Source: a virus
Taxonomy: Duplodnaviria; Heunggongvirae; Uroviricota; Caudoviricetes
DNA: 49,579 nt
Virus record (IMG/VR): IMGVR_UViG_3300021354_000001
Span: 64,067-113,645 of that record
Reading direction: 5' to 3' (one strand)
This document shows, piece by piece, positions 18,832-36,642 of this stretch. The first letter of the stretch is position 1; each line of letters starts with the position of its first letter. The notes beneath the pieces were generated by a model. It worked only from the letters and a program-made list of their open reading frames with translations. It did no database searches and was not told where the DNA came from. A program made the position numbers and the translations under genes.

Positions 18832-19215
18832 ATGAAATTAATTCAACCAGTAACTTCTTGGGCAAATGGGCAATCCGTAGAAGCAAAAATTTTAAATGCC
18901 TATTCAATAAATGACAACTTAGTAAATTCAGCTAATTTCTACTATGCTCTTTTAGAAGAGAATGCAGATGAAAGCGTAGGTGCAATGGTAGCACAAGGAA
19001 ATCTTACAATGACAGGAGATGATTATACAAATTATGAAACTAACCTTTATGCTTGGGATTGGGTAGCAGCACAATTAAATCTTACTATCATAGGCGATTA
19101 TGTCCCACCAGTACCAAGTACAACAACCACAACAACTGAAGCTCCAGTGGAAACAACAACAACTACCACCACCACTGAAGAACCATTAACCACCACTACT
19201 ACTACTACTATTTAA
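18832..19215 (+). CDS. Fibre-associated small protein with mucin-like poly-Thr C-terminal tail
   Basis: Follows the fibre gene; ends PSTTTTTTEAPVETTTTTTTTEEPLTTTTTTTI. Confidence 0.7.
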   Translation: MKLIQPVTSWANGQSVEAKILNAYSINDNLVNSANFYYALLEENADESVGAMVAQGNLTMTGDDYTNYETNLYAWDWVAAQLNLTIIGDYVPPVPSTTTTTTEAPVETTTTTTTTEEPLTTTTTTTI

Positions 19216-19270: not shown

Positions 19271-19606
19271 ATGAAAACAGTTAAATTAAAGGTGATTAAA
19301 GAAAACATTGGTGGTAGAGATACAATCTTAACTACATATGATCTACTTAAATCAACAATAAACAACCCAAAAGAGGGTGGTTTTAATGTAGATGAAATGA
19401 TTAAAAGATTAAGACTTCTTGAGAAATTAGATGCTCATAAAGAAACATTCTCAATAAAAGAAGCTGATCTTGAAAACTCTTTAGCTATAACAGCAGAACT
19501 TTCTCTTGAAGATGCTGATTACAATGATTTAAAAGAGCTTTTAAAAGGTATGAAATGGGGAGTTATCTCTCAAGCTATTGTTGATTTAGCTAACGAGTTT
19601 AAATAG
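19271..19606 (+). CDS. Hypothetical protein (possible fibre chaperone)
   Basis: 111-aa helical ORF with A-rich start, downstream of the fibre genes. Confidence 0.6.
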   Translation: MKTVKLKVIKENIGGRDTILTTYDLLKSTINNPKEGGFNVDEMIKRLRLLEKLDAHKETFSIKEADLENSLAITAELSLEDADYNDLKELLKGMKWGVISQAIVDLANEFK

Positions 19607-22600
19607 TTTATTAATCACTCTACTTGCTTTAATACCCCTATGACATTCAAAATGTTTAGGGGTATTTTTGTTAATAGGGCACCAATCCCAATCCCCTTTA
19701 TCAAATTTAAAATTAGGATTGTTCCAGCATCCATGACATAAACTCTCATCTGTAATTCTAATACAATTAGATTGAAACTCATGGTCCTTGTTGGTAAAAT
19801 TAGAGATCATTACCACCTTTGTTCCTACAGCCCAAGCTAACCAGCTAAGCCCTGAACTAAGTCCTATGAAGAATTCACTATGATAGATTACACTCATGGT
19901 GTTCTCAATGCTTATATCATCTATCTTAATGCAATTATCAAATGGATTATTCTCTTTGGATACATTGATGATTTTATATCCTTCATTGTGTAAATAGTTA
20001 ATCACTTCCTGCCAACCTTCTCTGGTCCAGAACTTACATCCTGTTGTAGAATTAGTAGCTATTGTAACATACCTACCATATTTATTATTACCACGATCAA
20101 ACTTTATATTAGGTCTAATCTCTTGAAAATCAAGACCTAAGATGTTGGTAGCTGCTTGTTGAAGTGGAATAGTGTTTGGTAAAACTGGTTCTTTATTACT
20201 ATTGTATTTCCAACCAAGAACATATTGTCCATATGTATTCACTGTAGATCCTGGTTCTACAAATTCAAGCTCAGGATAGTCCAGTATTTTATTCCAAAAA
20301 GTGGACACAACCACTATACAATTATGTTTCTTTTTAAACTCTAAGCAATAAGGTATCCAAGCTAATGTATCTCCCAGACTCTCACTATCAAAATGTATAA
20401 ACACTGTCTTACTTGTATAATCTAATGTGTAATTATATATAAGCTTATCATCTTGCCAAACCTTTGTTGTCCATTTAGTATAATATTCTCTATTTAATTT
20501 AACCCAATGGTTTATTTTTATATTAAATTCAGTAGAAAGACTACCATTTTCTTCATAAAAACAAACTTTAAACAGACTACCACTCACTCCTTTTATTTCT
20601 AAAAAGGGTTGAATAACAAAATGTTGTTTAATATCCACCCTTTGTTCTTGGAGAGGAATATTCATTACAGTGTTATAAAAGTTTTTATAGGCATTTGTAT
20701 AATCATCTAATTGATTTGGAATACTATATGTAGCTTTTATATCATGTAAGTTTGTATCTATGGGCTGTATGTAGTCAGTAAACATATCTTCATACTGCTC
20801 TAGGTTTCTAGCTACAATAGGTAAGCCATAACCAATTGCTTCTCTAAGAACTAGAGGATTACATTCCCATGTACTATTGAACATAAATATATCAGTAGCC
20901 TCCATAAATAGTTGTGTATCAGCTCTTTCTCCCCATATGGTTATATTAGGTGGTAGGTCTTTCATTAATGGTTCCCAATAATATTTGAAATTAACAGCTT
21001 GGTTACCTACAAAATGAAAATCCATATCAGGATAGTTACGAGCTATCTCAAGTCCTTCTCCCTGATTCTTACCTTGTGTCCACAGTCCTACATTCAATAC
21101 ATTAGTCCTAACTAAACTGATTCCTAATTTAACCTTTGCTTTATGTTTAACTATATCAGATACAACATTGTTCTCTATAGGAAACTCAATCACCTCTTTA
21201 TATGATGGTAAGTTAGCAAATGTCTTTAAGTGATATGGTGTACAGAAAGCATATGCATCAGGATGAAATATCTTTTCATTAGGATTAAAACTCACATCAT
21301 GACAGGTTTCTACAATCCTATAAGTTCTATTAGGATTGTATAGTTCTGTAATCATTTCTCTATCAAATCTTTCAGCTGGCTCATGTATATGAATAATGTC
21401 TGGTTGAATATGATAGATGAGATCAAATAGTTCCATTTTGTTCTCATATAATGTATATACATCTACTAGTTCTTTAATAGCATTACGCTGTACAACATAG
21501 TCTAAGCTATGACATTGATATTCAATTACACTTATATGTACGTAATTCTGTAGCACCTCTACAGTTTTCTGAAGGAAAGCAGGCATTCCTCCTGTGGATA
21601 GATGTGGAGCTAAAAACATTATATTTAGCTTTTTGTCTTTAAGCTTATCAATCATCTTGTACATAACATCTGGTCTCTTTTCCCCATGATAGAATAATAG
21701 ATTTTCTTTTTTAGGAAGTTTAAACCACTGCCAATGCTCCTTATCAAATTCATATTCATCTATCTTATTAAGAATATCAAGACTGGCATTAGTGTATAAA
21801 TATGGTAGACAATCTGTATGTCCATTTTTCCATAAGAGAACATTTGCAATAGTTTCTTCATGAAAGGGAGCATAGAGTTTAAAATCTTCTTTAATTTTAG
21901 GGTGAGTACACATCCAATACCATTCATCTAAAAATGGTATACAATCCTGATTAGCTATAAAATATCCTGTTTGTCTATAAGAACCTCTTTCTGCATCAAA
22001 GAACTCACAAGCTGGAAGCTCAAGATTAGCTTTTCCATTTAACATCATCACATCATATATACTATCTACAAATAGTGGATAGTCAGTAATAGAGAAGTCA
22101 AATATTCTATCTACTAGTGGTGTAGCTACACTATCACTATCTACATAAGCCACTGTATTAGCATATTTAAGACAGTCTTTAACAATCATTGGACGCTCTA
22201 TAAGGATGTTGTAAATCCTATCATCTGTTCTATTAATATAGAATTGATCTTTAGTATTGTATTCTATCTCTTTGATATTACAATCCCATCTGATGGTGGT
22301 AGCTTTATATATCTTTGCATCAGAGTTGAGCATGTATACAAACACTGGATGTTTACTAAATGTAACTAGAGAGTTTACACAAGCTGTTACAATATCATAA
22401 TAAGCCTCTGTAGCATATAGTACAAAAGCTTTATCAATCATCTTTCTTTCTATGTAATATCCATAAAACATATTTCCATAGAGGAGTTCTAATGTGGGAT
22501 AGCGTTCACTCATCACCTCTGTTGTCAAATCTGGTTGTAGATGAGTTTCATATATATTACCCTCATATGTTCCTTGTTCCATCATGTAAGGAATAGCAAC

Positions 22601-22942
22601 TAAACATTGCTTCCCAGCATTCTTCACATCTTGTATAAGCTTCTGTCCTTCCTCAGCTGTTAAATGTTCTAACACATCTCCTAAAATAAGGAAGTCATAA
22701 TTTGACCAATCAAATGTACGTATGTCTCCATCATAAATAACATCATAATAATTCCACAATTCATATTGATCAATATAAGGAGCCCATATCTCAAGAGCAT
22801 CTATGTCATATTCAAGATGTTCTAACAACTTACCATATGTACCTTCTCCAGCACCTACATCTAGTATTCTTGTATTAGCAGGAACATTGTTCTTGAACCA
22901 TTCCTTCACCTCATTTTTAAAGAATTTATAACTAGTAGGCAT
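19586..22942 (-). CDS. Four-domain polyprotein: class I SAM methyltransferase + GT-A glycosyltransferase + GT4-like GT-B + autotransporter O-heptosyltransferase (Aah/TibC-like)
   Basis: ILDVGAGEG (MTase); YVDSD DxD and HEETIAN (GT-A); APHLSTGGMP and ECNPLVLREA (GT4); SLGDTLAW, FFIGLSSGLSWLAW and CHGCWN..DWCP..FEC (BAHT Cys motif). ATG at 22942 preferred over the upstream ORF-track start. Confidence 0.8.
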   Translation of the reverse strand: MPTSYKFFKNEVKEWFKNNVPANTRILDVGAGEGTYGKLLEHLEYDIDALEIWAPYIDQYELWNYYDVIYDGDIRTFDWSNYDFLILGDVLEHLTAEEGQKLIQDVKNAGKQCLVAIPYMMEQGTYEGNIYETHLQPDLTTEVMSERYPTLELLYGNMFYGYYIERKMIDKAFVLYATEAYYDIVTACVNSLVTFSKHPVFVYMLNSDAKIYKATTIRWDCNIKEIEYNTKDQFYINRTDDRIYNILIERPMIVKDCLKYANTVAYVDSDSVATPLVDRIFDFSITDYPLFVDSIYDVMMLNGKANLELPACEFFDAERGSYRQTGYFIANQDCIPFLDEWYWMCTHPKIKEDFKLYAPFHEETIANVLLWKNGHTDCLPYLYTNASLDILNKIDEYEFDKEHWQWFKLPKKENLLFYHGEKRPDVMYKMIDKLKDKKLNIMFLAPHLSTGGMPAFLQKTVEVLQNYVHISVIEYQCHSLDYVVQRNAIKELVDVYTLYENKMELFDLIYHIQPDIIHIHEPAERFDREMITELYNPNRTYRIVETCHDVSFNPNEKIFHPDAYAFCTPYHLKTFANLPSYKEVIEFPIENNVVSDIVKHKAKVKLGISLVRTNVLNVGLWTQGKNQGEGLEIARNYPDMDFHFVGNQAVNFKYYWEPLMKDLPPNITIWGERADTQLFMEATDIFMFNSTWECNPLVLREAIGYGLPIVARNLEQYEDMFTDYIQPIDTNLHDIKATYSIPNQLDDYTNAYKNFYNTVMNIPLQEQRVDIKQHFVIQPFLEIKGVSGSLFKVCFYEENGSLSTEFNIKINHWVKLNREYYTKWTTKVWQDDKLIYNYTLDYTSKTVFIHFDSESLGDTLAWIPYCLEFKKKHNCIVVVSTFWNKILDYPELEFVEPGSTVNTYGQYVLGWKYNSNKEPVLPNTIPLQQAATNILGLDFQEIRPNIKFDRGNNKYGRYVTIATNSTTGCKFWTREGWQEVINYLHNEGYKIINVSKENNPFDNCIKIDDISIENTMSVIYHSEFFIGLSSGLSWLAWAVGTKVVMISNFTNKDHEFQSNCIRITDESLCHGCWNNPNFKFDKGDWDWCPINKNTPKHFECHRGIKASRVINKLFKLVS
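19631..19669 (+). terminator. Intrinsic terminator embedded in the 3' end of the convergent glycosyltransferase gene
   Basis: AATACCCCTA / TAGGGGTATT 10-bp stem followed by TTT. Confidence 0.65.
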
Positions 22943-22950
22943 ATGATTAT

Positions 22951-22988
22951 TTTGTACAAATTTAAGAAAGATTAGGTATATTTGCAAA
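22951..22988. promoter_or_regulatory. Overlapping divergent Bacteroidota-type promoters
   Basis: + strand: TTTG 22951-22954 and TATATTTG 22977-22984. - strand: TTTG 22988-22985 and TAAATTTG 22964-22957. Confidence 0.7.
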
Positions 22989-25825: not shown

Positions 25826-25933
25826 ATGGCATATCCATTCACTAAACAACCTGAACCTGTACACTCTGAACAAGTAAAAGCTATTCTTGATAGATTAACT
25901 ACTAGTACAACAACCACTCAAACTCCACAATAA
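25826..25933 (+). CDS. 35-aa micro-protein with Thr-rich tail (below the ORF-track cutoff)
   Basis: MAYPFTKQPEPVHSEQVKAILDRLTTSTTTTQTPQ; TAATG coupling to the next ORF. Confidence 0.55.
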   Translation: MAYPFTKQPEPVHSEQVKAILDRLTTSTTTTQTPQ

Positions 25934-26384: not shown

Positions 26385-26822
26385 ATGGCAATACCTTCTA
26401 GACAGATAGGATGGGGCACAGAAGAGAATCTCTTATGGCAGATATCCAAACAATTGGAATACCTCACAGGGGTGGCATATGCTGCTGGATCAGCATCTTC
26501 TACAACAACATTTCCAGTTCCTGCAGCTGCTAGTACAGTTAGTACAACTGCTGGTGCAGGCACTACAATTATTAATTTTGAAGGGCCCATTGCTAATAGT
26601 TTTACATTAGATGTAACAACAGCACCTGGTGCTCAATTGGGAAATAAGATTTATTTGATGATTACAGGTGGAAATCCTAGTGGAACAATAACATTTGCAG
26701 GAGATCTTAATAATATTGAATGTGGTACTTCTTATAATACATATATTCCTGATAATAATACAAGAAATGTTATTGAATTTGTATATGATGGTCTAGTTTG
26801 GACTGGAATAGATAACTGTTAA
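26385..26822 (+). CDS. MAIPSRQIGW-module protein with Ser/Thr linker and beta domain
   Basis: First ~30 aa nearly identical to those of the next ORF. Confidence 0.75.
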   Translation: MAIPSRQIGWGTEENLLWQISKQLEYLTGVAYAAGSASSTTTFPVPAAASTVSTTAGAGTTIINFEGPIANSFTLDVTTAPGAQLGNKIYLMITGGNPSGTITFAGDLNNIECGTSYNTYIPDNNTRNVIEFVYDGLVWTGIDNC

Positions 26823-26832
26823 AAATAAAGAA

Positions 26833-27015
26833 ATGGCAATACCATCAAGACAAATAGGTTGGAGTACAAAAAGCAATTTGCTTTGGCAGATATCTAAGCA
26901 ATTAGAAGCTTTGACAGGAGTGATGGCTAGGAACCTTCCTGCTACCACCACCACTACAACTAGTAGTAGTACTAGCACAAGCACTACGACCACAACTACT
27001 ACAGCTACTCCATAA
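26833..27015 (+). CDS. MAIPSRQIGW-module protein with poly-Thr/Ser tail
   Basis: MAIPSRQIGWSTKSNLLWQISKQLEALTGV + ATTTTTTSSSTSTSTTTTTTTATP. Confidence 0.75.
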   Translation: MAIPSRQIGWSTKSNLLWQISKQLEALTGVMARNLPATTTTTTSSSTSTSTTTTTTTATP

Positions 27016-27039
27016 GAATAAAACAAACCAAAACTACAT

Positions 27040-28056
27040 ATGAAGGATTTAAAATTTATCTGTGCCCAACCAGATGATACTTATTACACTTGGCAGGTAC
27101 ATGCTTGGTTAGAAAGTCTTAAGAATATTGGGCACTCAGATAAAGCTATTGTACTTGTGTACACTCCTAGCTTTAGACAGAAAAGTGATAAATGGCAAAA
27201 GATTGAAGACCTCTATCCAGAAGCAGAGTTTGCTTATTACAAGGATGGGGGGGAGGTCAGTCAGCTCTTAGGAACTTATATTCCTGTTCTGCGTCCTTAC
27301 AGTCTTATGAGATACTTCCAGGATAATCCTGAAATGTCTACAAAAGCTGTCTTCTATTGTGATTGTGATATATTATTTACAGATAAATTTAATGTAGATG
27401 CTTATATAGATGATGACACATGTTATCTCTCTGACACAAACAGCTACATAAATGCTTCATACTTTGATAGTAAGATAAAGGATGTGCTTCCTGATATGAT
27501 AGAAGCATATAAAAAGATTGATGTTTTAGAGCAGCTTGCTTCTAAAATTGGTATTTCAAGAAAGATAGCTGAGGCTAACAATAACAACTCAGGAGGAGCA
27601 CAATACTTCTTAAAGAATGTAGATGGTGCTTTCTGGGAAAAGGTGATGAAAGATTGTATAACAATACGTTTGTATTTACAAACTATAAATAAACAATATT
27701 TCGCAAATGAGAATAAAGGGTTTCAAAGCTGGTGTGCAGATATGTGGGGAGTGTTATGGAACCTTTGGTTGATAGAAAAAGAAACTAAAAATATACCTGA
27801 AATGGACTTTTCCTGGGCATCAGATCCAATTGAGAAGGTGCAAAAGCTTGGAATGTTCCACAATGCAGGTATAACTAGTAGAGACATGGATGGTTATCCT
27901 GCTTTTTACAAAGGGGCTTACCACACTGGTAAAGATCCATTTGAAGATACACATATGCTCACAGTGGCTAATGATGTAAATGCTAAAGGTAGAGGAACAC
28001 ATTACTATGTCACAAAACTTATTGAATTAAAAAACAAATATAATTTAAATTACTAA
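27040..28056 (+). CDS. GT-A glycosyltransferase, resembling peptidyl Ser/Hyp O-glycosyltransferases (GT96/GT95-like)
   Basis: YYTWQ near the N-terminus, LRPYSL, DCD DxD (27361-27369), GGAQY, WCADMW; family is my recollection of motifs. Confidence 0.55.
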   Translation: MKDLKFICAQPDDTYYTWQVHAWLESLKNIGHSDKAIVLVYTPSFRQKSDKWQKIEDLYPEAEFAYYKDGGEVSQLLGTYIPVLRPYSLMRYFQDNPEMSTKAVFYCDCDILFTDKFNVDAYIDDDTCYLSDTNSYINASYFDSKIKDVLPDMIEAYKKIDVLEQLASKIGISRKIAEANNNNSGGAQYFLKNVDGAFWEKVMKDCITIRLYLQTINKQYFANENKGFQSWCADMWGVLWNLWLIEKETKNIPEMDFSWASDPIEKVQKLGMFHNAGITSRDMDGYPAFYKGAYHTGKDPFEDTHMLTVANDVNAKGRGTHYYVTKLIELKNKYNLNY

Positions 28057-28058
28057 TT

Positions 28059-28301
28059 ATGGCCCAAAATAATAATCGCCCTCTCAAAGCTTATGTACGC
28101 TTTGATGGTACTGGAAGAATAGTTCCAAGCAGCCTAATTTTACGGAGAAAGAAACCAAAGGTGGGTAAATGGGTAGAAATTCCAGCTTATGAATGCTGCA
28201 ATTATGTTCCTACAACAACCACTACAAGTACAAGTAGTACAACAACAACCACTACCACAACTGCTACTCCTACCACTACAACAACAACAACTGTACTTTA
28301 A
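28059..28301 (+). CDS. LKAYVR-module protein with poly-Thr tail
   Basis: LKAYVRFDGTGRIVPSSLILRRKKPKVGKWVEIPAYECC + PTTTTTSTSSTTTTTTTTATPTTTTTTTVL. Confidence 0.75.
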   Translation: MAQNNNRPLKAYVRFDGTGRIVPSSLILRRKKPKVGKWVEIPAYECCNYVPTTTTTSTSSTTTTTTTTATPTTTTTTTVL

Positions 28302-28313
28302 AATTAAATAAAA

Positions 28314-28739
28314 ATGGCAAATAGCAATAATAGATTAAAAGCATATGTACGTTATGATGGTACAGGACGTGTTATAGCAGGTAGTTTAATTCTACAAAGA
28401 TCCAAACCAAAGATTGGTAACTGGCATGAGATTCCTGCACATGAGTGTTGTAATCCTGCTCCTACAGTACTATTATTTAGTCCAAATCTTCCTTATTCAT
28501 ATCCTGCTGTAACTATCTATTGTGATGAAGTGAATGTAGCTTATGCATATGTACAAGATAATACAGAGATTACAACTATAGATCAATTAGTAGAAGCACT
28601 TAATGCAAATGAAAATACTCGTGCATTTGGAACATATTCAAACGCAGGACCAGGAGGTCTTCAATTAACAGTTCCATTATCAGTTAAGAATAACTTATGT
28701 CCTAATGGAATTTTAACGTTTTCATCTCAAGCAGACTAA
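28314..28739 (+). CDS. LKAYVR-module protein with C-terminal beta domain
   Basis: LKAYVRYDGTGRVIAGSLILQRSKPKIGNWHEIPAHECC, paralog of the preceding ORF. Confidence 0.75.
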   Translation: MANSNNRLKAYVRYDGTGRVIAGSLILQRSKPKIGNWHEIPAHECCNPAPTVLLFSPNLPYSYPAVTIYCDEVNVAYAYVQDNTEITTIDQLVEALNANENTRAFGTYSNAGPGGLQLTVPLSVKNNLCPNGILTFSSQAD

Positions 28740-31241: not shown

Positions 31242-32213
31242 ATGAGTAGAAATCCAAAGTTAAAACCTTATGCAAGATTTTTAAAAAATAATGAAATAGT
31301 ATCAGGAAGTCTTGGTTTATACACTCATGCTCCTACTGTTGGTATTTGGAAGGAAGTTCAACCAATTGAATATTTTAATAAAACTACTAAACATTATAGT
31401 GAGGTAGTTAATGCTACATATCCAAATGCTTTATTAGCTAACAATGTTGCTTATAAATTAGTAAGTTTTCTTGATGGTTTAGGTGCTGATGCATATAATA
31501 CTGTTTTGAATTCTACAGTTTGTTCAGATGATGTTAATGCTTCTGAGTTTGCTAATATATTTAACATAGGTCAAAATCCTCCAGCATTAAATAACTATCT
31601 TGGACCATTTATGGGTGGTGGACTTGCTGGATATCCTCACACAGGTATATTAGGAGCACAAGCTTGGCAAAGTCACACTACATCAGATGATAATGCAAAT
31701 GGACCATTATTATTAATTAACATGCCTCATATAGGAATTACACAACAAGCTGACCTTATTGCAGCTAATGATAATGTAGGTAGAATGTTAAGAAGAGGTA
31801 AGAGTTCTGCTACAGCTGATAATACATGTGGAGCTGTTGCTACAGCTATTGCTGATGCAATTACATTAAATGGTGTTGCACCAGTGGCTACAAATGCTCC
31901 TTTTGTAAACAATTATCAAAGATATCAACTTGCATTAATTGTTTATGCTTCTTATACTTATTATAATACACATACATATTCACAGAATATGATTCAAGCT
32001 ACAGAACTTATAAGAGTTGCAAGTTATAATATATTACATAATACAATTATTCCTGCATTAGGATCTGTAAACAATTTATATTTGTTTAGTGGTACATTTA
32101 TTAATGCTGATGATGGTTATTCTGCATTTATTAATATTAATTCATTAGAAGTAAGAACTGGATCAACTTGGACATCTCTTACAACAAGTTTTTTAAATTT
32201 TGTAAATGGCTAG
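31242..32213 (+). CDS. LKAYVR-like N-terminal module fused to an LCIB/theta-type carbonic anhydrase domain
   Basis: NTVLNSTVCSDD, GGLAGYPHTG..G..A..SH, PHIGI, VGRMLRRG, DNTCGA; Zn ligands Cys94/His163/Cys196 present. Confidence 0.75.
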   Translation: MSRNPKLKPYARFLKNNEIVSGSLGLYTHAPTVGIWKEVQPIEYFNKTTKHYSEVVNATYPNALLANNVAYKLVSFLDGLGADAYNTVLNSTVCSDDVNASEFANIFNIGQNPPALNNYLGPFMGGGLAGYPHTGILGAQAWQSHTTSDDNANGPLLLINMPHIGITQQADLIAANDNVGRMLRRGKSSATADNTCGAVATAIADAITLNGVAPVATNAPFVNNYQRYQLALIVYASYTYYNTHTYSQNMIQATELIRVASYNILHNTIIPALGSVNNLYLFSGTFINADDGYSAFININSLEVRTGSTWTSLTTSFLNFVNG

Positions 32214-32613
32214 TATTAAAAAACCTGGTCCTTATAACCCACAGAAAGCAACAGCTTATGTAGGGAAAGGTGTTCTTAAGAATGGTGGTGGTATCACTCC
32301 TGTTCCTAATGGTCCTTTAGTTAAAAAGAAAGGAGAGTTTAAAGGAAGCACATTAAAAAATGGTGGATCTACACCTGCTTGGACTAGAAAAGAGGGTAAG
32401 AATCCAAAAGGTGGATTGAACGCTAAAGGAAGAGCTTCATACAATGCAGCTAATCCTGGTTCTCATCTTAAAGCTCCTCAACCAGAAGGTGGTCCTCGTA
32501 AGAGATCATTCTGTGCTAGGATGTCAGGAATGAAGAAGAAGCTTACAAGCTCTAAAACAGCTAATGATCCTAATTCACGCATAAATAAAAGTTTGAGAAA
32601 GTGGAAGTGCTAA
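32206..32613 (+). CDS. DUF6321-like basic protein
   Basis: AWTRKEGKNPKGGLNAKGRASYN..RKRSFCARM..SRINKSLRKWKC. Confidence 0.75.
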   Translation: MASIKKPGPYNPQKATAYVGKGVLKNGGGITPVPNGPLVKKKGEFKGSTLKNGGSTPAWTRKEGKNPKGGLNAKGRASYNAANPGSHLKAPQPEGGPRKRSFCARMSGMKKKLTSSKTANDPNSRINKSLRKWKC

Positions 32614-33224
32614 TTAGTAATGAAAATAAACAAAAATACTTTTCTGAAAAACAAAAAGGAGGAGTTATTTATAAAATTACTAATAAGATAGATGGTAAGT
32701 TTTATATAGGAAGTACAAACAATCTGATAAAAAGATATTATACTCATATAAATCATATAAGAACTAATAAAAATACTTGTGTTAAACTAATTAGAGCAGT
32801 TAATAAACATGGAGAAGATAACTTTAAGTTTGAGATTATTTGTGAATGTTCTACAGAAGAAGTTCTTAAATTTGAACAGAAATATTTAGACAGCCTAAAG
32901 CCACATTATAATGTTGCTAAAATTGCTGGAAGTAATCTTGGAATTAAAAGAACACAAGAAGTTAAACTTAAAAAGTCAGTTTCCCAAAAAGAAAATTGGA
33001 AAGATGAGTCTTATAGAGTTAAACATCTAGAAAATTTATCAAAGAACTGGAAAAGTGGAACCAGTCATAAAATGGCTAAACTTACAGAAGAACAAGTAAT
33101 TCAAATTAAAAAACAATTATTAATTGGTCTTCTTCCTAAACAAGTTGCAGATACTCTTAAAGTAAGTTATTACTCTGTAAAAGATATTCATAGAGGAAAA
33201 ACTTGGAAAAATATAATTGTATGA
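32601..33224 (+). CDS. Free-standing GIY-YIG homing endonuclease with C-terminal HTH
   Basis: GVIYKITN..FYIGST..KRY..H..E..Y..YN catalytic module; KLTEEQV..V.DI.RGKTW DNA-binding tail. Confidence 0.88.
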   Translation: MEVLISNENKQKYFSEKQKGGVIYKITNKIDGKFYIGSTNNLIKRYYTHINHIRTNKNTCVKLIRAVNKHGEDNFKFEIICECSTEEVLKFEQKYLDSLKPHYNVAKIAGSNLGIKRTQEVKLKKSVSQKENWKDESYRVKHLENLSKNWKSGTSHKMAKLTEEQVIQIKKQLLIGLLPKQVADTLKVSYYSVKDIHRGKTWKNIIV

Positions 33225-35095: not shown

Positions 35096-35632
35096 CTATT
35101 TCTTTATTCCCCAAAAATATAAATCTTGAGGCCATGTTTCTCTAGCAATAAATTCATGCTCAGAGAAATGGTTTTCCATATCTATCTCTTCACGAACATC
35201 TTGTTCTGTGAGATTCATGTAATAATCATTTTCTATTAAGGATGTAAATGGAGAGTCTTGAGGACTTGTTCTACGTGTACCATGTTCAGGTCTTCCTGTT
35301 GTAGCACAGCTAAACAAAAACACTCCCCCTAGTTTAGTTAAAGCAATACAGTTTTTAATTGTATCCTTCCAGAACTCATCATGTTCAAAGCACTCAGCTG
35401 ATATAACAATATCAAATCCTTCAGAGTCTTTGAATTCATGTCCTCTACATACAATATCTACATTCTTTCCTGCACCAATATCTACACCAATGTATTTATA
35501 ATCTGTAAATAAATATCTATTGTTTCCATTAATATCTAATGAACCAATATCTAGCACTCTACAATTAACAAACTTTTCAGGAAACTTATCTTTTACATAT
35601 GTCATGAATGTTCTTTGTTCTGGATGTGCCAT
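35096..35632 (-). CDS. Class I SAM-dependent methyltransferase
   Basis: VLDIGSLDING, GVDIGAGKNVD, FDIVISAECFEHD. Confidence 0.85.
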   Translation of the reverse strand: MAHPEQRTFMTYVKDKFPEKFVNCRVLDIGSLDINGNNRYLFTDYKYIGVDIGAGKNVDIVCRGHEFKDSEGFDIVISAECFEHDEFWKDTIKNCIALTKLGGVFLFSCATTGRPEHGTRRTSPQDSPFTSLIENDYYMNLTEQDVREEIDMENHFSEHEFIARETWPQDLYFWGIKK

Positions 35633-35633
35633 T

Positions 35634-36377
35634 TTATAAGTTTAAATATGTCTTTAATAAATCTACATAGTCTATCTTCCAACAAGGATTTAATTGAACA
35701 TCTCCTGTAGGAATATTTCCTTTACTTCTTTCTCTTTCAATATGAGCACTGTGTCTTTGTATAGCATTGAGTTTTCCAGAATGATCTGTACCTTCACCAC
35801 TCATATGATAACCTCTACCTCCCCACATATAGAACCAACTTGCTTCTTCTTTAGGAGGTTTAGCAAACAGTCTTCCTCCATATGCATTAATGCGTTCAAT
35901 GAATGTCATATCATATCCAGCATTCTCAAGAGGATGTCCTCCTATAGCTTTCCAAGCTGACTTTCTAAACACAATACCAGAGTTACCTATCCAACCAACC
36001 TGTTCAATACCTGTAACATGACATAACACTCCTGTTTCCCAATGAATAATATTCACCTTATCAGTCATGTATTTAGCTACATTTTTTAAATGGTGTGGTA
36101 GAGCTACATCATCATCATCCCATTGACATATTATATCTCCTTGGCATAATTCTGTTGCATAGTTTTCCTTTTCACCTATAGTATCAAATGTTTTGTCTAG
36201 GTTAAATATCTTAATTTGAGGATGATCAAATACAAGAGTTTGTAAAGGATAATCATTAACTATTATAAGCTCACATCTATCTGCAGGATAGTCTTGCTTG
36301 AGGAAAGATTCAACACTCTCCTCAAGCGTAACTATTCTACCATAGGTTATACATTTACATGATATAAATGGATACAT
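35634..36377 (-). CDS. GT2-family glycosyltransferase
   Basis: TYGR..LEE..SFLKQDY, ELIIVND, WDDDD motif; ATG at 36377 preferred. Confidence 0.85.
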   Translation of the reverse strand: MYPFISCKCITYGRIVTLEESVESFLKQDYPADRCELIIVNDYPLQTLVFDHPQIKIFNLDKTFDTIGEKENYATELCQGDIICQWDDDDVALPHHLKNVAKYMTDKVNIIHWETGVLCHVTGIEQVGWIGNSGIVFRKSAWKAIGGHPLENAGYDMTFIERINAYGGRLFAKPPKEEASWFYMWGGRGYHMSGEGTDHSGKLNAIQRHSAHIERERSKGNIPTGDVQLNPCWKIDYVDLLKTYLNL

Positions 36378-36378
36378 A

Positions 36379-36642
36379 TTAATTGATTGCTCTAAATTTA
36401 ATAATGTCATCACCCTCTAGTGTAATCTCTGATTGATACACCTTACGTTCTCTCTTATATCCCTTCATCTTATTAGTCTTAGGATCAATTTCTGGAACAT
36501 TTTCACTACGCTCATGCATATCATCTAATAGGATTAAAAGACTGTTGTCTTCCATTTCTACAGACCTAATCACTTTGTTTAGATTAAAGCTATCTGTATA
36601 GCTTTTGTCATCTGTCTTTCTTGTGTAAAAGAATTGGCTCAT
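36379..36642 (-). CDS. Hypothetical protein
   Basis: ORF packed within the - strand operon. Confidence 0.6.
   Translation of the reverse strand: MSQFFYTRKTDDKSYTDSFNLNKVIRSVEMEDNSLLILLDDMHERSENVPEIDPKTNKMKGYKRERKVYQSEITLEGDDIIKFRAIN

Follow-up and report, generated by a model that had tools for sequence, protein, structure and literature searches.

The window, i.e. the whole stretch of DNA that was analysed, comprises 49,579 nucleotides and corresponds to bases 64067-113645 of the phage record IMGVR_UViG_3300021354_000001, which is 113,645 bp long and ends in direct terminal repeats. We were interested in three open reading frames (ORFs) on its + strand, in which a gene for a soluble 338-aa glycosyltransferase (GT) of the GT-A fold (27040-28056; phrog_4417, DxD at D108/D110), a candidate poly-Thr O-glycosyltransferase, lies between two very small genes. 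Upstream is a 60-aa protein (26833-27015) with an N-terminal anchor of about 30 aa, named family A here (hidden Markov model (HMM) E 5e-25), and a Thr/Ser tail ending in TTTTTTTATP; downstream is an 80-aa protein (28059-28301) with an anchor of about 48 aa, named family B, that forms a small beta unit (HMM E 1e-32) and carries a poly-Thr tail. The gaps are 24 bases between the 60-aa ORF and the enzyme gene and 2 bases between the enzyme gene and the 80-aa ORF, and from this same-strand run with equally short gaps the three ORFs are probably co-transcribed. An earlier note on this DNA had described a DxD enzyme directly flanked by two ORFs that are little more than an anchor and a Thr tail, and this layout was borne out: the three genes lie where it had placed them, TTTTTTTATP can be read in the translations of both small ORFs, and the further motifs that it had picked out in the enzyme (YYTWQ, RPYS and WCADMW) are present.

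The enzyme matches phrog_4417, a family with no annotated function (E 6.4e-51; residues 4-307 on profile positions 1-274 of 293), and gave no Pfam match at E<=1. Its homologues form 1473 clusters at 90% identity (E<=1e-5) and 757 clusters at 50% identity (E<=0.001), found in phages and bacteria. An alignment of 81 homologues with 30-48% identity (A1) revealed Y80, D108, D110, Y136, F257, H274 and K291 as invariant; the last two occupy what we take to be the expected places of the GT8 metal/phosphate ligands, going by the H..G..K motif of GT8 and not by superposition. AlphaFold2 led to a model with a mean predicted local distance difference test (pLDDT) of 97.6 and a predicted template modelling score (pTM) of 0.94, consisting of a single Rossmann-like alpha/beta/alpha GT-A domain with D108-x-D110 between strands 103-106 and 111-113, as expected for the GT-A motif. 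Because the catalytic fold starts with its first strand already at residue 4, without any N-terminal extension, the protein has neither signal peptide nor membrane anchor and is cytoplasmic. Searches of the PDB by sequence, with the protein as well as with its profile, returned noise only, whereas Foldseek matched 244 PDB chains at E<=0.001, with GT8 glycogenin and GT6 alpha-1,3-galactosyltransferase at the top (probability 1.0, template modelling (TM) scores of 0.40-0.47). An all-against-representatives structural search (VIA) gave Z values of 13.9 for glycogenin (PDB 1zcu/3u2t; 237 residues aligned), 13.8 for Skp1 alpha-galactosyltransferase (Skp1 GalT; PDB 6mw8), 13.3 for LgtC, 13.2 for WbbM, 13.1 for the catalytic domain of UGGT, 12.9 for GlyE (PDB 5gvv), 12.6 for LARGE1 and 11.2 for A64R, which glycosylates the PBCV-1 capsid. 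The likeness to GT8 is one of fold only, as PF01501 (Glyco_transf_8) matched neither the enzyme nor its 81 relatives. In longer homologues the domain is fused to GT2, GT6, O-FucT, PF11397 GlcNAc-transferase or methyltransferase domains, which places it among glycan-building enzymes.

Both flanking proteins share their anchors with larger neighbours. The first 30 residues of the 60-aa protein recur in the preceding 145-aa ORF (26385-26822, +), where anchor alignment and HMM identify a family-A paralogue with a Ser/Thr/Ala-rich linker and a globular C-terminal payload; likewise, the first ~48 residues of the 80-aa protein recur in the following 141-aa ORF (28314-28739, +), a family-B paralogue by the same two methods that bears a globular payload and no Thr run. 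More distantly, the family-B anchor is also found in a 323-aa ORF (31242-32213, +; alignment A2; anchor HMM E 5e-22) in front of an LCIB-type carbonic-anhydrase domain (PF18599, E 1.8e-18). HMMs built from the anchors of relatives detected two anchors of family A and three of family B in the genome, and no more. The family-A paralogues differ by 11 synonymous versus 4 replacement changes over 30 codons and the family-B paralogues by 14 versus 11 over 40 codons, an excess of synonymous changes indicating that the short ORFs are real genes under protein-level selection. In the model of the family-B anchor a small beta unit is predicted with pLDDT of about 92 over residues 10-40, and the Thr tail is predicted to be disordered, so that the description as an anchor plus Thr tail holds for proteins whose anchors are paralogous to those of the adjoining larger genes. 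The codons of the Thr tracts are mixed (ACA 16, ACT 13, ACC 8, ACG 1), which argues for tracts selected as protein and not for slippage repeats; together with an identity between the tails of only ~75% at the DNA level, it indicates that these are neither slippage tracts nor recent copies. Tail-only forms also occur in relatives, for family A in four (L033, L037, L063 and L074) and for family B in five (L003, L027, L048, L049 and L060), with tails of ~10 to ~130 residues. Throughout the segment 26385-32213 the two anchor families bear interchangeable C-terminal payloads, namely a Thr tail, a small globular domain or the LCIB-type carbonic anhydrase; payloads in relatives range from 52 to 996 aa, and there the enzyme gene usually stands between one family-A and one family-B gene. 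When the anchor model (56 residues) was used to search for similar folds, it returned, apart from noise, only a homologue from Virus NIOZ-UU157, which may be a relative of this phage: its entries in BFVD (A0A7S9SUE7 and A0A7S9XE01) include a 985-aa protein with a GT1 domain and a protein that shares 70% identity with the family-B anchor.

The association of the enzyme with poly-Thr proteins extends well beyond this genome. Tracts were defined as runs of at least six Thr/Ser with at least five Thr and were scored on greedy gene calls, in one set of 80 IMG/VR loci from close relatives (enzyme identity 63-97%) and in a second set of 80 loci from a clade whose enzyme is ~35% identical to the query. 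Among the close relatives such tracts were found in the gene directly before the enzyme at 33/79 loci, in the gene directly after it at 61/80 and in the second gene after it at 34/78, versus 11/1094 for genes more than two positions away. In the second clade the directly upstream gene was positive in 32/80 cases versus 7/745 elsewhere, often encoding a protein of 500-2000 aa with many Thr linkers, and on contigs from bacterial genomes 11 of 77 genes next to the enzyme carried a tract versus 5 of 526. With ~1% of genes elsewhere versus 42-76% beside the enzyme, the pairing is beyond chance. The reverse test pointed the same way: when 80 IMG/VR loci were chosen only for ten consecutive ACN codons, six of them held the enzyme, each time on the same strand and ~240-620 bp downstream of the run.

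All six cultured phages that were opened (Enterococcus phage phiFL2B, Clostridium phage phiCTP1, Lactococcus phage 1706, Lactobacillus phage Lpa804, Staphylococcus phage PT94 and Chryseobacterium phage MA9V-3) encode poly-Thr in one or more genes immediately upstream of the enzyme. In phiFL2B, phiCTP1 and 1706 the enzyme gene directly follows the tail-tube gene and precedes the tail chaperones. Capsid and tail-tube proteins of phiFL2B and 1706 end in tails of Thr only, and in the whole genome of phiFL2B these two genes are the only ones with such tracts; phiCTP1 has its tails on the tail-tube protein and on a small head-module protein, and in Lpa804, PT94 and MA9V-3 one or two Thr-tract proteins are encoded immediately upstream. 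As no GT2, GT1/4 or GT9 gene was found in the genomes of phiFL2B, phiCTP1 and 1706, the enzyme is the sole phage-encoded candidate in these three siphophages and would have to initiate there. HNH-like insertions part the enzyme from the tail genes in PT94. In MA9V-3 (L001:3615-6004) the three consecutive genes upstream of the enzyme share an N-terminal module of a third type, G-K-x-x-Y..E.D..TG.PTGN, and two of them bear Thr/Ser linkers of 20-70 residues. With both enzyme and Thr linkers, MA9V-3 provides a cultured Bacteroidota phage for experiments.

Enzyme and tails were also found to be gained or lost together. Among 20 Enterococcus-phage loci of IMG/VR whose tail-tube gene is orthologous to that of phiFL2B (64-100% identity), nine combine the enzyme with a Thr tail on the capsid protein and another on the tail-tube protein, and eleven are without all three (Fisher p = 6e-6, uncorrected for kinship). 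The proteins of the eleven untailed loci can be aligned as far as the position at which the tails start. One tailed, enzyme-positive locus at 83% identity stands among untailed, enzyme-negative loci at 80-88%, indicating repeated gain or loss of the trait, or its movement as a module.

On Bacteroidota chromosomes (Sphingobacterium, Chitinophaga, Pedobacter, Mucilaginibacter) the same domain mostly forms the N-terminal part of a longer protein, with at least 480 aa at 57 of 80 loci, and two of five fusion proteins scanned hold a second, GT2/GT7C-like domain. Several of the loci opened adjoin genes for LanC-like proteins and a C39-peptidase ABC exporter, and at least two encode 82-aa peptides with a double-glycine leader whose cores combine TTTTTTSS-type tracts with several Cys. 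Judged from their gene content, these loci look like gene clusters for glycosylated ribosomal peptides; examples are L353:5609-7575, L308:5596-9672, L311:6001-10823 and L301:6001-8940, from Sphingobacterium, Mucilaginibacter and Chitinophaga. The occurrence of the enzyme domain beside Thr-tract precursor peptides again indicates a peptide acceptor.

Within the 113.6-kb genome of the phage studied here, the two flanking poly-Thr proteins of the earlier note are present but are not the only ones, as at least ten ORFs carry such tracts. Among them are a tail-fibre protein (phrog_8469), a protein of 380 aa encoded in the structural block and a 127-aa protein with three poly-Thr tracts at its end (18832-19215, +), which is a further candidate acceptor. 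A putatively coding 35-aa ORF ending in TTSTTTTQTPQ (25826-25933, +) is possibly one more tail-only mini-protein. Also among the ten is a virion structural protein of 1684 aa (phrog_37948; genome 45008-50062, i.e. L168:12009-17063) with eight poly-Thr linkers. Its orthologues were collected from 80 loci, all of them close relatives (66-99% identical); 47 of the 49 complete ones keep 1-9 Thr tracts at lengths from 1426 to 2070 aa. The three long contigs by which this set overlaps the enzyme-locus set all have the enzyme, and no enzyme-free comparison set was seen.

Three further genes of the window, all on the - strand, may act on the same glycan. A 1133-aa protein (19586-22987) combines a MetW-like methyltransferase (PF07021) with GT1/GT4-type (PF00534/PF13692) and GT9 heptosyltransferase-like (PF01075) domains and matches phrog_2170 weakly; it is a candidate for a glycan-extending enzyme or for a rival initiating enzyme. 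Its gene lies antisense inside the late block of the + strand. A 259-aa GT2-family glycosyltransferase (35634-36413; PF00535, E 1.9e-10) is adjoined by a 178-aa methyltransferase-like protein (35096-35632), for which the match to PF13489 is weak (24.4 bits versus a cut-off of 27, E 2.7e-5).

Therefore, from the fold with its invariant DxD, the adjacency to poly-Thr genes across clades, and the joint gain and loss with Thr tails, we consider it likely that the enzyme O-glycosylates poly-Thr tracts of phage proteins; that it also adds the first sugar in this phage we hold with somewhat less confidence, because the same phage encodes a GT9-like domain. As a proposed mechanism, the cytoplasmic, metal-dependent DxD enzyme would attach the initial sugar to the hydroxyl groups of Thr in disordered poly-Thr tracts while the proteins are in the cytoplasm, ahead of assembly or in its course. 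Judging from its fold neighbours in GT8, GT77, GT6 and GT24, the donor is probably a UDP-sugar and the mechanism retaining, leading to an alpha linkage. The likely acceptors would be the two flanking mini-proteins, each with a folded anchor and a disordered Thr tail, joined by the Thr linkers or tails of at least eight other proteins including the tail fibre and the 1684-aa virion protein, and the 1133-aa protein, the GT2 enzyme and the methyltransferase (19586-22987 and 35096-36413) may extend or methylate the glycan. The tail-only mini-proteins could thus be dedicated glycan carriers which, if their anchors dock on the particle, would surround the virion with a mucin-like glycan brush. Thr as acceptor residue, the initiating role and a biological benefit, such as shielding from proteases or antibodies, hydration or adhesion, are what we infer from these comparisons.

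Several points weigh against this interpretation. The major capsid protein of the phage (phrog_11589, genome 33743-35296) has no Thr tail, so that the capsid/tail-tube pattern of the Firmicutes phages is not directly transferable to it, and its other GT domains include the GT9 heptosyltransferase-like one as a possible initiator. About half of the second-clade loci are without a Thr run beside the enzyme under the strict pattern, and as related loci are not phylogenetically independent, the counts overstate their statistical weight. Furthermore, docking of the anchors on the virion is presumed, and the support for poly-Thr glycosylation by this enzyme family is comparative throughout.

The enzyme might instead extend a glycan that is started by the GT9 domain of the 1133-aa protein, which resembles autotransporter heptosyltransferases, or by a host enzyme. 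This would fit the GT1/4, GT9 and GT2 domains carried by the phage, the frequent fusion of homologues to further GT domains and the fact that the fold neighbours GlyE, Skp1 GalT and LARGE1 add sugars to existing glycans. However, the top fold match, glycogenin, acts directly on a protein hydroxyl, it is the enzyme and not the other GTs that tracks the Thr tails, and the three small siphophages with Thr-tailed tail-tube or head proteins possess the enzyme but none of the GT2, GT1/4 or GT9 genes, which makes a purely extending role improbable. Still less probable, in our judgement, is that the Thr tracts are unmodified flexible spacers and that the enzyme, with host envelope glycans or phage DNA as its target, owes its position to co-inheritance in late or structural blocks. 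Known targets of phage glycosyltransferases do include DNA and host serotype antigens (PMC12619734), and the glycans on the tract proteins are deduced purely from comparison. Yet co-inheritance does not account for an enrichment that is confined to immediate neighbours and falls to ~1% beyond two genes instead of covering the whole structural block, nor for tails on two separate genes that are missing in just those loci without the enzyme, although the remainder of each protein stays 64-88% identical, and the bacterial peptide-maturation clusters place the domain next to Thr-tract precursor peptides. Glycosylation of the tracts by this enzyme, with an initiating role, is thus the reading we prefer.

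A separate question is whether the enzyme is a true member of GT95 (HPAT) or GT96 (SGT1), in line with its designation as a plant-type enzyme and viral GT95/96 relative in the earlier note; its ancestry would then be closer to these than to GT8 or GT77, possibly through gene transfer. While the comparisons strongly support the other part of that proposal, a peptide O-glycosyltransferase with its Thr-rich acceptors encoded alongside, the family assignment was not confirmed, and we regard it as possible but doubtful. The motif pattern on which it had been based is present, and among the 30 Pfam-named ESM-Atlas clusters that are its nearest neighbours by protein language model 22 carry HPAT, two of them (cosine 0.96-0.97) in 10% and 58% of their members; we treat this as a lead and not as a test. 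A further point in favour is Skp1 GalT (Z 13.8) among the top fold neighbours, an enzyme of GT77, the family of plant enzymes that extend hydroxyproline (Hyp) arabinosides. On the other hand, the HPAT profile PF23452 (gathering score 23.9 bits) did not match the enzyme at E<=1, nor its 81 relatives (E<=0.01), ten more relatives (E<=1) or the five bacterial fusion proteins (E<=0.01), i.e. some 100 relatives. It was likewise not found by six-frame search in this phage's genome or in the phage records of five relatives (E<=10), and among 406 Bacteroidota genomes it gave no match in 401 sampled ones and none to the homologues in the five that hold such, where the best hit (E 0.36) lay elsewhere in the genome. 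The DUF7164 profile had no match in the phage genome, and a homology search seeded with the distant family member P0264 returned no HPAT-annotated protein. Plant HPATs carry a type II membrane (Golgi) anchor N-terminal to the catalytic domain, whereas the phage enzyme has no membrane anchor, and its likely acceptor is Thr, not Hyp or Ser. The Foldseek comparison neither confirms nor refutes the assignment: its nearest match is glycogenin, a GT8 enzyme that acts on protein and not on lipid, followed in the structural search by the GT77 enzyme Skp1 GalT. No GT95 or GT96 chain was among the PDB matches, and to our knowledge no structure of either family has been solved, so that the fold comparison cannot decide this kinship. 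With more than 750 clusters at 50% identity, the family is so large in phages and bacteria that no plant origin has to be assumed, and 'plant-type' and 'viral relative' are misleading terms for a soluble enzyme; a remote relationship to HPAT, to which the language-model neighbours point, is plausible.

As to the remainder of the window, it is AT-rich (~31% GC) and contains giant ORFs of 2623, 1675 and 1914 aa as well as genes for an endolysin, rIIA/rIIB-like proteins, a UvsX-type recombinase, ribonucleotide reductase and PhoH. A GIY-YIG-type homing endonuclease gene (phrog_314, E 7e-25) is located within the late gene block at 32601-33224. The phage is taken here to be crAss-like.

In a wider sense, poly-Thr may be a portable glycosylation tag that is served by one enzyme family in Firmicutes and Bacteroidota phages and in bacterial peptide-maturation clusters, with mini-proteins in crAss-like phages that exist solely to build a virion glycan brush; for this broader proposal we see the arguments as evenly balanced. 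If it is true, the glycosylation of virions would be modular and widespread among phages of the environment and of the gut, and not a peculiarity of mycobacteriophages, which, going by the accessible parts of the literature, are the only measured exception that we found to unglycosylated phage particles, with glycans that shield them from antibodies. The module of tag and enzyme is spread over hundreds of enzyme clusters, including those of Enterococcus, Lactobacillus, Lactococcus, Staphylococcus and Clostridium phages and of crAss-like phages, and is directly testable in cultured phages. It would affect models of virion surfaces, where unexplained density, odd gel mobility or peptides missing from virion proteomics might be seen, and would matter for how immunogenic therapeutic phages are and how they are cleared. 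If confirmed, biotechnology would also gain a short O-glycosylation tag that can be encoded genetically, along with the soluble enzyme that acts on it. A literature search that covered subscription papers in part turned up no account of the enzyme family, nor any of poly-Thr tails that serve as a glycosylation tag in phages.

When compared with known systems, the enzyme shares the GT-A fold and the DxD motif with GT8 glycogenin, the GT77 enzyme AgtA (Skp1 GalT), LgtC, GlyE, UGGT and WbbM (Z 12.9-13.9 over 212-249 aligned residues), several of which act on proteins or protein-bound glycans; it differs from them by a sequence identity of only 9-13%, TM-scores of 0.40-0.47, a length greater by ~80 residues and extra helices. 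Like HPAT (GT95) and SGT1 (GT96), it would initiate O-glycosylation of structural proteins at their repetitive tracts of hydroxy amino acids, but it is soluble and not Golgi-anchored, and its presumed acceptor is Thr. A similar logic is seen in the serine-rich-repeat adhesins of streptococci (GtfA/B with GlyD/GlyE-type GT8 enzymes), where disordered Ser/Thr-rich repeats are O-glycosylated in the cytoplasm by soluble GTs. There, glycosylation is started by a GT-B enzyme, and the pathway is one for bacterial adhesins, in contrast to a phage system in which a single GT-A enzyme tracks the tag.

Phages are not typically glycosylated (PMC11256854), and the closest known system is that of the mycobacteriophages Che8, Corndog and Myrna, whose phage-encoded GTs modify the phages' own structural proteins by attaching glycans to the capsid and tail-tube subunits at their C-termini, thereby shielding the virions from antibodies (Freeman et al. 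2023, Cell Host Microbe 31:1216, as cited in PMC12619734, PMC12363180 and PMC11256854). These glycan sites correspond to the positions of the Thr tails in the Firmicutes-phage relatives, and here, too, a phage-encoded enzyme is tied genetically, by adjacency and by joint presence and absence, to tagged structural proteins. The enzyme family is probably a different one, as there is no mycobacteriophage among the 77 phage records that tblastn matched to the enzyme (the enzymes of mycobacteriophages were not compared directly). The presumed acceptor here is a recognizable homopolymeric poly-Thr tag, which in the present phage is on mini-proteins, fibres and a giant virion protein and not on the major capsid protein.

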